A DNA stretch of 64,000 nt from Candidatus Freyarchaeum deiterrae (GTDB lineage Archaea > Asgardarchaeota > Jordiarchaeia > Jordiarchaeales > Jordiarchaeaceae), in the NCBI GenBank assembly GCA_037305845.1, contig CP147778.1, forward strand, positions 1,440,001 to 1,504,000. Reading direction: 5' to 3'. The notes below the pieces were generated by a model. That model saw nothing but the letters and a program-made list of their open reading frames with translations. It had not been told where the DNA came from and did no database searches. The position numbers and the translations under genes were made by a program. Positions 11,545 through 60,739 of the stretch are shown one piece after another (positions within the stretch are counted from its first letter, which is position 1; each line of letters starts with the position of its first letter).

Positions 11545-13040
11545 TTACCCCTTTACAACACCAAGAGGACGCAAACGTGCAACCATAGACGCTATCCCCG
11601 CATCATGCGAAGCTTGCACCACTTCATCAACATTCTTGTAAGCCTCTGGGGCTTCCTCACTCACAACTTGAGCACTAGCCGCCCTAACAAAAATCCCCTT
11701 CGACAAGAGTTTGCTTTTCACACCCTCACCTGAAAAGCTCTTAATCGCCTGAGTCCTACTCATCACACGGCCGGCACCATGTGCGGTGGAGCCGAAACTA
11801 AGCTCCATTGCTTCTTTTCGTCCTCTAAGTATGTAGCTGGCGGTTCCCATGGTTCCAGGTATTATCACCGGCTGACCTATGCTTCTATATTTTTGTGGAA
11901 CTTCTGGATGGTCTGGCGGAAAGGCGCGTGTGGCTCCTTTTCTGTGTACATAAACAGAGTGAGTCTCACCGTTAACCTTGTGCTTTTCTATCTTTGCTAT
12001 GTTATGCGCCACATCGTAAATCAGATGCATATCAAGATCTTCAGCTGACCTTCCAAATACGTTTTGAAAGGATTCTCGTATCCAGTGTGTTATACTCTGT
12101 CTATTTGCCCAGGCGAAATTCGCGGAGGCAGCCATAGCCGCTAAGTAGTCTTGTCCCTCAGGACTGTTTCCAGGAGCGGCTGCTAGTTCTCTATCGGGTA
12201 AATTAATTCCGTATTTTCTTGAGGCGTTTTCCATGATTCGTAGATAGTCAGAGCAGACTTGATGTCCTAGACCCCGTGAACCCGTGTGAACCATTACGGT
12301 AACCTGATTCTCACTTAATCCTAAGACCTTGGCTGCGTCTTGATCAAAAATTTTCTCTACGTATTGAATCTCGAGAAAATGATTACCTGCCCCTAATGTT
12401 CCCACTTGGGCAACCCCTCTCTCCTTTGCTTTGCTTGACACTTTTGAAGTGTTCGCTCCCTCCAATTTTCCATTCGCTTCGCAGTTTAAAGCGTCCTCTT
12501 CCCATCCGAAACCGTTTTTAATAGACCAGCTAACGCCCTCGGAAAGAATTCCGTCCAAGTCTCTAGCTGAGAGTTTAATTTTTCTCTTAGATCCCAAACC
12601 ACTAGGCACATTATCAAACATTTCTTTTGTTAACTCTTTTATCTTGGATTCAGCGTCCTTCCTCTCAAGATTGGTTTTAATCACTCTAACACCGCAATTG
12701 ATATCATACCCAACCCCGCCGGGACTTACAACTCCGTTGTCCTCAATATCAGTAGCGGCTACTCCGCCTATTGGAAAACCGTAGCCCTGATGAGCTTCCC
12801 TCAGTAGAGGACATCCTCTCCTGAATCGGGCAGGGTTACGGAGAATTTTTTTATGCCTGGCAGGCTGCATACGTTAACGGCTTGGATTAGAGTTTGATCC
12901 TTATAAATATCTTTAAGCAATACCTCGTTTGCAATAATTCTGGCTGGAACCCTCATGTAGGGTCGATAATCTTTAGGAATCTCCCAAATGTTTTTATTAA
13001 TCTGCTTAAGAGGAATATTTCTTGTACTCAAAACAATCAC
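11545..13040 (-). CDS. rtcB: RNA-splicing ligase RtcB; two exons (13040/13031-12825 and 12795-11545), about 485 aa spliced
   Basis: Exon 1 ends ..VTLPD, exon 2 starts [11 protein letters not shown]; DINCG, GNHF, HTGSRG, HN, HRKGA, HGAGR motifs intact. Confidence 0.96.
12796..12824 (-). other. 29-nt BHB-type intron in rtcB mRNA
   Basis: CCCG AU|U CAG-G-AGAGG AUGU CCUCU-A-CUG AGGG AA|G; excision restores LPD-AHQGYG; in-frame UGA inside. Confidence 0.88.
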
Positions 13041-13565
13041 CTCAGTTCAACAATAAATAAATCAATTCAGGGAGGGATATATTAGGTTAGAAATTTGACA
13101 GATTGATACTCCGCTTTGTTTAACATGGTTTATATCTGTAACTCTCTTAAAATATTAGTTGTATTTATTTTTAATGCGTATACCAAATTCCAAAGTCCAG
13201 AGAAACAGTTTATCACTATTGATTGTTCGGTGCTTCTCCGTTTTTCTTAGTAGGTATTCCTGGTTTTATATGCCACTTCAAAGAGTTGTTGTATATAAAA
13301 TTATCTAGTTTGCTCAGTAAGAAGATTAAGAATCTCTTAAAAGGGAAGTATTTTTAATTAAATCAGAGTTTTGATATTGAATAGAACCAATGACTTCAAT
13401 GAGAACCTAAGCTGAGAGCAGTTCTTAAATTGAAATTTAGGTTACTAGTATAGAACTAGCAAGCATTATTTCCATATTTTTGGGTACAAAGTAAGGAAGG
13501 TATGCGAAAAATTGAAAACTCCAAACACACAACTTAAAACCAAAAGAAAAGAGCGGCGATGAAGT

Positions 13566-30515: not shown

Positions 30516-32450
30516 TTATCCCTCTAACCTTTGTTTTAATTTTTTACGAAGGAGTTCAGCCACTACTTTTCCGTCGATGTTGCCCCTAACTTTTTCCATC
30601 ACTTTACCCATCATAGGGCTAAACGCTCTTTCTCCGTTTTTTTCTATAAAGTCGCTGCTTTCATCAAGTATTTCATCGATTATTCCTTCAAGTTCCTCCG
30701 TGGTAATGGTTTCCAGTTTCAATTCTTTGAGAGCGTCCTCAACTGTAATTGAGGGAGATTTTCCAAGTACTCGAAGGACTTCCTCCACTGCCTCTTTTGC
30801 AATTTTACCTTCAGAGAGAAATTTGAAAGTCTCTTTAATTTTTTCTTGAGGTATTTCATCTGTTTGAATGTTCTCTCTATCCAGTGCTTTCATAGTTTGA
30901 AGAAGAGATACAGCAACGATCGTCGGATCTATTTTAATTTCTTTAACAATTTCCATGAAAAGCTCCATTTTTCCAGATCCCATCAATTCCTCTGCGAACA
31001 ATTCGTTTATCTTGTATTTCTTTGCCAAGCGTTTCTGAACCACCCAGGGATATTCTGGAAGGTTTTTTCTAATTGATTCTACTCTTTCTTTTTCTATAAC
31101 CAGTGGTGGCGAATCTGTATCGGGATATAGACGCGCCCCGCCATGTAACTCTCTTAAGAATTCGCTGTTGCCATTTTCTAGGGCTCTTCTGGTTTCTCTT
31201 AGTACACCCTTTAAGGCTCGCTTGGCGCGGCTAACGGCGTTATCCAATGCCTTTTGTGCTTTACTTTCATCTCCAATAACAATTGCATATGAGTCCATCT
31301 CGTCCAGAGCGAGAAAGCTTCGCAGCTTTGAATCCTCTTCCACACTGATGTTGTATTTATCAAGTTTTTCATCGGAATGGATAATGCCCTTTAGTCCGGT
31401 AATCACTGTTACTCTCTCAGCGATTTCCTTTCCAAAACTTTTTCCTGGTTGAACCTCTTTGCCTAATAATCCAGCAAATTTGGGCAGCTTTACCGACAGC
31501 ACTTTTTCTTCCTTTTTCTTATTTTTAATAATCTTGCATTTGGTAGAAGCGAAAATCTTGGAAGCATCTTTATATTCCGGTGAAAAGTCTTCTTCCTTTA
31601 CCCCTCGTTCTAATAGCTGCTTCTTAATGTCTAGTAGTGCAACTTGTCTTATTGTCTCATTTTCAGCTAGTCTAGGGATCCATTCTAACTTCTGGACTCC
31701 CTTGATTTCAACCCGCTCACCGCCCTCTATACTGACGTTAATATCCTGTCTTATGGTTCCAAGTCCCCTCTTTACCTTCTCTGTTGATCGTATAAGCATC
31801 CCTATCTTGTAAGCGGTTTTAAGAATTTCATCCGGATTTGTTATTTCCGGTAATGTAACGATTTCCACTAGGGGAATTCCCAATCTGTCTATTCTATAAT
31901 AAACTGTTTTCTCTTCTTCCCTAATTTTTCTAGCAGCATCCTCTTCTATACAAATAGTGGAGACTCCGATTTTCTTACCGTCGAGTGGTATGAAGCCGTC
32001 TGTTCCGATGATTAATGTGCGCTGAAATCCACAGGGAACTGATCCATCGAGATAGTTTTTTCGTAGGATGTGCAATTCGTCTATTACCTTTGCATTAAAC
32101 AGGAGTGAAATTTCAATACCTATGTCTATCGCTTCTTGGGAGATGTCAAAAGGAGGTGTTTGATGCTTGCAGGTGTTCTACATGCAAGTTTCATCTATCT
32201 CATATGTGCAGTTAACATCATTAAATCCTTCATATACGATAGTACGTCCTTTTTCATACTCAACTAGCATTGCTTCATCATACTTCCCCATCTCACCTAA
32301 TACTGGTCTAAAATATCTCTTAACTAGAAATTCGGGTTCATCGGTTTTTAGAATTGGCTGACAGAGACAGAATAGTTTGCGATTGGTTAGAAGCTCCTGG
32401 TGAATTTCAATTCCTGCCTTGAATCCTAGTTTTTCGTATTCTAGCTCCAA
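30516..32450 (-). CDS. gatE: Glu-tRNA(Gln) amidotransferase subunit E; two exons (32450-32190, 32159-30516), about 634 aa spliced
   Basis: Y..LG.K.GIEIHQ.L, KLFC, DE|TPP across junction, DGS...GFQRT, RGLGTIRQD, R.YP.TD. Confidence 0.95.
32160..32189 (-). other. 30-nt BHB-type intron in gatE mRNA
   Basis: GAUG AA|A CUUGCA ... UGCAAG CAUC AA|A; perfect 4-bp central helix; in-frame UAG inside. Confidence 0.9.
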
Positions 32451-60389: not shown

Positions 60390-60739
60390 CTATTCTACCT
60401 TAAGTGGAAACGTGTAAATTCTACATAGAGCCACTGCTTTCCAAGGGTCCAGCAACCCCTGCTTCTGTTGATAATCTTTTCTTGCCTTTTCTTCCCTCGC
60501 TTCAATGCAACTTTTGCACCGAGGATGCCTCGGATCGATTAGCCCAGCCTGCGGCTGTGTGGCCCTTCACATGAAGCGCAGTGAAGCATTAGAACAGGCA
60601 GATTTTCACTGATTTCTATGCGAAAATACTCGTTGCCATCAAACTCATCCTTAAAATCGGGCCAAATTCCGTAAAGATTCTGAGACTCAAGAACTTCTTT
60701 TAAACGAATGAATATTTTTTCGAAACTCGTCATCTCCAT
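60390..60739 (-). CDS. Hypothetical 2x CxxC protein; two exons (60739-60559, 60538-60390), 109 aa spliced
   Basis: Spliced: ...HCASCEGP-L-DPRHPRCKSCIEARE...WKAVALCRIYTFPLKVE. Confidence 0.8.
60539..60558 (-). other. 20-nt BHB intron in CxxC protein mRNA
   Basis: G GGCC AC|A CAGCC GCA GGCUG GGCU AA|U C; exon-1-frame UAA ends the intron. Confidence 0.82.

Follow-up and report, generated by a model that had tools for sequence, protein, structure and literature searches.

A conserved BHB-type intron in the rtcB gene of an Asgard archaeon, probably spliced as one of a wider set of mRNA introns

The literature that we searched describes archaeal mRNA splicing in one gene family alone, cbf5. The closest described system is formed by the cbf5 introns of Desulfurococcales and Sulfolobales (Watanabe 2002; Yoshinari 2006; Yokobori 2009, PMC2738675), whose splicing has been shown: they are 16–44 nt long, lack an ORF, are located at the codon of a catalytic residue, often present a relaxed BHB motif and are cut by a hetero-oligomeric EndA, with in-frame and frameshifting versions coexisting. 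Non-canonical tRNA introns of the HBh' type were described in Freyarchaeia, where 92–95% of the tRNA genes carry introns (PMC11291895). The ends produced by EndA (2',3'-cyclic phosphate and 5'-OH) are established as the substrate of RtcB (PMC9745838). In animals, RtcB rejoins the XBP1 mRNA after spliceosome-free removal of a 26-nt intron, the stress-activated IRE1 cutting two stem-loops and thereby switching on a transcription factor (PMC10630183). Neither an rtcB intron nor an Asgard mRNA intron was reported in the full-text literature searched, subscription papers lying outside it.

The window analysed here is a 64,000-nt stretch of DNA from Candidatus Freyarchaeum deiterrae, corresponding to positions 1440001–1504000 of a single-contig, complete genome of 3,576,204 bp. 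On its minus strand, rtcB is broken into two frames: a short upstream one that stops at a UGA (12803–12801) and a long one downstream that runs to 11545. A preliminary description of this locus had proposed a 29-nt insert with a central helix, two bulges, an inner hairpin and an in-frame UGA, and we observed all of these elements where they had been placed, together with an exon-exon stem of 10 pairs (12841–12831 with 12789–12779) that was absent from that description:

12825..13031, minus strand: rtcB exon 1, 69 codons, the last one coding for Asp, the equivalent of P. horikoshii Asp65
12796..12824, minus strand: putative BHB-type rtcB intron, 29 nt, phase 0, on the grounds of sequence, conservation and fold
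11545..12795, minus strand: rtcB exon 2, 416 codons plus stop
12827..12830, minus strand: 5' strand of the central helix, CCCG, exonic (Pro codon and first base of the Asp codon), invariant in 13 variants
12798-12801, minus strand: 3' strand of the central helix, AGGG, intronic, forming three pairs and a G.A with CCCG
12823-12802, minus strand: inner hairpin of the intron, CAG-G-AGAGG/CCUCU-A-CUG, as drawn in the preliminary description
12803-12801, minus strand: in-frame UGA within the intron
12831..12841, minus strand: 5' arm of the exon-exon stem (Ser-Val-Thr-Leu-Pro codons), third positions invariant
12779..12789, minus strand: 3' arm of the exon-exon stem, in which the third base of a Gln codon covaries with the first base of the Leu codon

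Excision of 12824..12796 leaves one open frame of 485 codons that reads LPDAHQGYG and contains all active-site motifs, so that the remaining gene is intact, as had been proposed; exon 2 alone retains the equivalents of Asp95/Cys98, Asn202/His203, His234, His329, His404 and Lys480. In the alignment to P. horikoshii RtcB, exon 1 corresponds to residues 3–65 and exon 2 to residues 67–481, which places the intron directly after the Asp65 codon and before the codon equivalent to Gly66, in the single rtcB of the genome. This aspartate is indeed the essential active-site residue that it had been taken for, since the D65A variant of RtcB is inactive and is not rescued by archease (PMC3973293). The unspliced RNA is predicted to encode only a 76-residue fragment. 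Translation probably starts at a TTG at 13031 (alternatively at a GTG at 13040), and a ribosome-binding-like GAGGTGA motif is present at 13043–13037, ahead of rtcB. Purifying selection acts on both exons (dN/dS 0.03–0.15), with synonymous sites near saturation (pS up to 0.8). The gene is divergent from that of aIF5B (IF-2) over ~520 nt (window 13041–13565), an arrangement retained in relatives, some of which have a gene of 177–189 residues in between; a promoter and terminator scan gave no excess over shuffles.

The same 29 bases recur without change in an independent assembly (SRR15677223). With the sequences added by pattern and protein searches, at least 13 distinct same-site variants are known, all within one clade. 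Every clade member (13/13) carries the insert, of 30 nt in 11 cases and 29 nt in two, and all 13 inserts block translation, in 12 of them by a UAA or UGA as second codon. In this genome the second-codon stop was lost through a compensatory change of U-A to G-C, and the frameshift leads to a stop six codons later. The frameshift mentioned in the preliminary description is incidental and no special feature: only two of the 13 variants shift the frame, whereas the other 11 are 30-mers that keep it and owe their block to a stop codon. The U and A of the intron stop are retained in 12/13 and 13/13 variants, respectively, while their pairing partners vary. All five GTDB congeners have a stop within rtcB at this site; in the sister family the gene is uninterrupted in four of five genomes, the fifth giving no match. 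No same-site insert was observed in the other Asgard rtcB loci read, nor an Asp-His insert in nine further Asgard loci with short open frames, most of them at contig ends. A scan of metagenome DNA with a pattern that required the CCC Pro codon retrieved at least 120 matches, and those listed include four true same-site introns, all from the same clade. In a protein tree with eight intron genes a branch with 100/100 support sets the intron-bearing rtcB apart from the others, and all 13 also group together, so that a single gain suffices. Judged by this distribution, the rtcB intron is younger than the order-wide introns described below and is confined to one genus.

The bulges of the rtcB intron, AU|U and AA|G in the canonical register, start with A, as do those of most other introns of this genome. 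If each bulge is cut between its second and third base, LPDAH results in all variants, in exact agreement with the intronless sister family; the earlier proposal of an endonuclease-type mRNA intron is supported. Alternative junctions of equal length were rejected: they are at odds with the geometry of the bulges, and DAH is replaced by EAH or DSH. A group I/II ribozyme or a homing-endonuclease intron was rejected as well, given a length of 29–30 nt, the lack of an ORF and an Rfam search in which no family came near threshold. The central helix is CCCG/CGGG, with four of four pairs, in seven of the 13 variants and CCCG/AGGG, with three pairs and a terminal G.A, in six; for this character the tree calls for two changes, a single one also being possible. 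At the 5' site, which has the HBh' feature, the first intron pair is C-G in 13/13 and the second A-U in 12/13. For a strict hBHBh' motif, the G-C closing pair could form in 13/13 and the second pair in 12/13, but the predicted fold favours the longer exon stem, and the strict form has a predicted probability of 0.02.

Comparison of the relatives also showed that 91% of the cells of the proposed structure are paired, against 40–46% in slid controls, and that three pairs underwent two-sided changes, these figures being counts over 13 related sequences and not probabilities. One exon-stem pair, in which both positions are synonymous, is C-G in nine variants, U-A in three and U.G in one, and nowhere else in the gene do five successive codons have invariant third positions as those of the 5' arm do, the gene-wide proportion for comparable positions being 12%. 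The inner hairpin is missing from the RNAalifold consensus of the rtcB variants, because its register shifts between them.

The 63-nt region of the intron (12841–12779) folds better than shuffled sequences (z -3.2; 1 of 200 equally good). Its elements are those drawn in the preliminary description; the register is where that drawing did not hold, as the predicted minimum-energy fold adopts a shifted U-A register, favoured by about 2.5 kcal/mol. In this genome the first intron base is predicted to be paired (p 0.97), and the HBh' and full hBHBh' forms lie at +2.5 and +7.6 kcal/mol. The U-A pair moves the 5' bulge by one base in those G.A variants whose first intron base is U; it competes in five of the 13 variants, which are spread over two or more well-supported branches, one variant having the G.A without the competing pair. 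Among 14 introns tested, the shifted register is unique to this one. Cutting there would, by computation, excise 31 nt, so that the frame is lost, and we infer that the enzyme would select the canonical register. In the predicted fold of all variants folded, the long exon stem places the 3' cut site in a bulge of 8 nt and not of 3 nt.

We were able to identify in the genome both enzymes that such an intron would require. EndA is encoded as two subunits, alpha and beta, by uninterrupted genes. The alpha subunit has its best match in A. pernix (E 9e-43), including the specificity loop region and catalytic residues, and such loops accompany relaxed substrates (PMC12397907). There is one rtcB and one intact, uninterrupted archease gene. 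A second RNA ligase, for which the preliminary description had suggested looking, was not found, a search of five genomes for TIGR01209 (Pab1020-type) giving no match. RtcB would then most likely join its own mRNA and, in the absence of another candidate ligase, its synthesis would depend on RtcB already present. ARAGORN returned only 17 tRNA genes, several of them spurious, which fits the abundance of non-canonical tRNA introns described earlier (PMC11291895).

The rtcB intron is not isolated. In a census, this genome was compared with samples of two other Asgard genomes (800 kb, ~780 homologous loci). Eight disruptive inserts scored high and had BHB geometry at their best junction: those of rtcB, cbf5, gatE, a CxxC protein and ppsA, and three in ahcY. 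A ninth, in an aconitase-family gene, was checked by homology. Besides rtcB, homology thus confirms at least eight introns in six genes, with kae1 in addition, and each homology-confirmed intron sits in a conserved motif. These introns affect ~1% of conserved genes, which is a lower bound, and similar introns, some of them candidates, are seen in about a dozen other genes of the genome:

43415..43446, minus strand: cbf5, canonical BHB intron of 32 nt, in the GTL^DPKV motif
32160..32189, minus strand: gatE, BHB intron of 30 nt with in-frame stop, present in 11/11 genomes of the order searched
60539..60558, minus strand: unnamed protein, BHB intron of 20 nt between two CxxC motifs, uninterrupted in the G011 homologue
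G000:C1:1876393, 1876927 and 1877066, minus strand: ahcY, three introns of 191, 29 and 56 nt
G000:C1:2203742 and 1661667, minus strand: kae1 and ppsA introns, conserved across the order
G000:C1:1125569 (+), 2244134 (+), 1589381 (-), 987065 (+) and 2636190 (-): BHB-shaped inserts

Excision of the inserts in alba, pcm, porA, an HD-domain gene and the aconitase-family gene restores motifs that can be recognised, the first four having been judged by eye. The GTL^DPKV motif is, we take it, the one interrupted in crenarchaeal cbf5; the intron also occurs, with 29–32 nt, in G002, G003 and G004 and in G006 of the sister family. The kae1, gatE, ppsA and cbf5 introns span the order, and their lengths switch between frameshifting and in-frame with a stop; kae1 is split at one site in ten of the ten genomes where it was found, by introns of just 13–14 nt in the sister family. 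The gatE intron (29–35 nt) has a perfect 4-bp helix and a 6-bp intron stem, with compensatory changes between families; in 10 of 11 genomes no exon helix adjoins it. As the kae1 intron of G002, moreover, has a G.A at the same helix position as the rtcB intron, relaxed motifs seem to be ordinary in this lineage. In ahcY, congeners have the middle intron only and most of the sister family has none, a patchiness which suggests that intron gain is ongoing; the 191-nt intron is a long hairpin and possibly the remnant of a larger element. Another census match, an 83-nt frameshift at window 37312, is probably an antisense shadow. A structure-only scan of the genome gave 50 candidates under the true rule against 46–47 in one-base-off controls, and 23 against 14–17 under stricter settings; being near the control level, it cannot count introns, and we relied on the homology-confirmed cases alone.

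By all testable features except the strict 3' bulge, the putative rtcB intron is a member of the same group as the crenarchaeal cbf5 introns, among which, as among the rtcB variants, in-frame and frameshifting versions occur. It differs from them in its host gene, the splicing ligase itself, hence the self-dependence; in its lineage, an Asgard one (Freyarchaeia/Jordarchaeia), with at least ten introns of this kind, itself included, in the genome; and in that its splicing is deduced, whereas theirs was demonstrated. With the non-canonical tRNA introns of Freyarchaeia (PMC11291895) it shares size, geometry, cut rule and presumably enzymes; it lies, however, in an mRNA, its exon helix consists of codons under synonymous constraint, and a failure of splicing would truncate a protein. 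The preliminary description had also drawn a parallel to XBP1, which is likewise a short mRNA intron to be rejoined by RtcB; this comparison is reduced to the ligase family, since both nuclease and RNA motif differ and no evidence of regulated cutting was found. EndA would cut two bulges that flank one shared helix instead of two stem-loops, and most rtcB variants cause no frameshift. Elements of another kind interrupt RtcB in two other Asgard genomes, G042 (L325:140-3061) and G058 (L326:159-3074), where an intein with a LAGLIDADG domain lies near the active site, and several other Asgard rtcB frames of ~970–1015 residues show the same split pattern, so that this region seems to attract intervening elements. 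Like the intron, these inteins must be removed from the active-site region for activity; unlike the ORF-less intron, they are self-spliced at the protein level, comprise ~490 residues with a homing nuclease and occupy a different site.

We consider it probable that the insert is a spliced BHB intron, joined by RtcB, which belongs to a genome-wide set and is not a tuned regulator; that the rtcB mRNA is spliced by EndA and RtcB is, taken by itself, very likely. An (alpha-beta)2 endonuclease would cut both bulges two bases in (after AU at 12825 and after AA at 12796), the exon-exon stem would keep both exon ends together after cutting, and RtcB with archease would join them into the 485-codon message, with a built-in positive dependence of new RtcB on existing RtcB. 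The intron would be one of a set that landed in conserved active-site motifs in a lineage whose endonuclease has broad specificity, and its persistence, presumably neutral, would follow from the need to remain spliceable and from the fact that only a precise deletion can remove it. Two observations count against this reading: in this genome the predicted ground state has the shifted register rather than the canonical one, and the intron survived near-saturated synonymous divergence.

Selection of the spliced intron as a regulator, a slow substrate that would tie RtcB output to the ligase already present and to competition with tRNA introns for the endonuclease, seems to us rather unlikely. The self-dependence inherent in the anatomy, the competing register on separate branches with its out-of-frame product, the unusually constrained exon stem and the regulatory role also proposed for the cbf5 intron (PMC2738675) all speak in its favour. 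Yet the perfect helix of seven variants, and the G.A without a competing pair in another, do not bear out the earlier suggestion that relaxed helix and competing register tune efficiency; the sister family has the order-wide introns and nonetheless an intronless rtcB, no intron interrupts the genes of archease and the two EndA subunits, introns of this kind occur in many unrelated metabolic genes, and the loop would be positive rather than homeostatic. From the feedback loop of the preliminary description we therefore retain the self-dependence on a sole ligase and not the dedicated regulation, considering the similar introns elsewhere, the lack of conservation of frameshift and competing register, and the inteins nearby. 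A more specific version, in which multi-gene, protein-only mRNA splicing in Jordarchaeales is combined with an rtcB intron selected, in this genus, as a sensor of splicing capacity whose G.A/U-A register switch determines the amount of ligase produced, we regard as unlikely; if true, close relatives of eukaryotes would possess an autoregulatory, archaeal equivalent of unconventional mRNA splicing.

Joining by another, unrecognised ligase after cutting by EndA, which would abolish the self-dependence, is very improbable: the searches were limited to known families and did give weak PF09414 matches (E 1e-4 to 1e-8), but these lie in frames of 580–680 residues, as would be expected of DNA ligases, TIGR01209 was not found in the five genomes searched, and the ends left by EndA are those that RtcB uses (PMC9745838). 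It is extremely unlikely that RtcB is made without splicing. An ATG at 12870 does open, in this genome, a 441-codon frame into exon 2, but its product would lack Asp65, whose loss inactivates the enzyme (PMC3973293); readthrough would insert 10 residues between Asp65 and His67; a ribosomal frameshift or any other single recoding mechanism could not serve all variants, given that 11 are in frame with a UAA or UGA; and exon 1 is under purifying selection. The single frameshift in a metagenome-assembled genome could suggest an assembly error or a dead pseudogene, which is effectively refuted by the identical insert of the independent assembly and 12 other same-site variants, by the absence of any other lesion and by a dN/dS far below 1. 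This is, besides, the sole rtcB of a complete genome full of tRNA introns, in which a working ligase is indispensable.

The probable splicing of a neutral, RtcB-joined intron thus remains our preferred reading, and the rtcB intron is real, conserved, part of a wider set and apparently unpublished. The intron-bearing genes would then be wrongly entered in public databases as split or broken, eleven RtcB fragments of 70–76 residues being recorded there, and metatranscriptomes exist from the same soil as the Freyarchaeia genome (PMC11291895). If the intron is spliced, the splicing ligase depends on its own activity, and an Asgard lineage would splice core mRNAs (rtcB, cbf5, kae1, gatE, ppsA, ahcY and more) with its tRNA-splicing enzymes, which would bear on the origin of RtcB-dependent mRNA splicing in eukaryotes.
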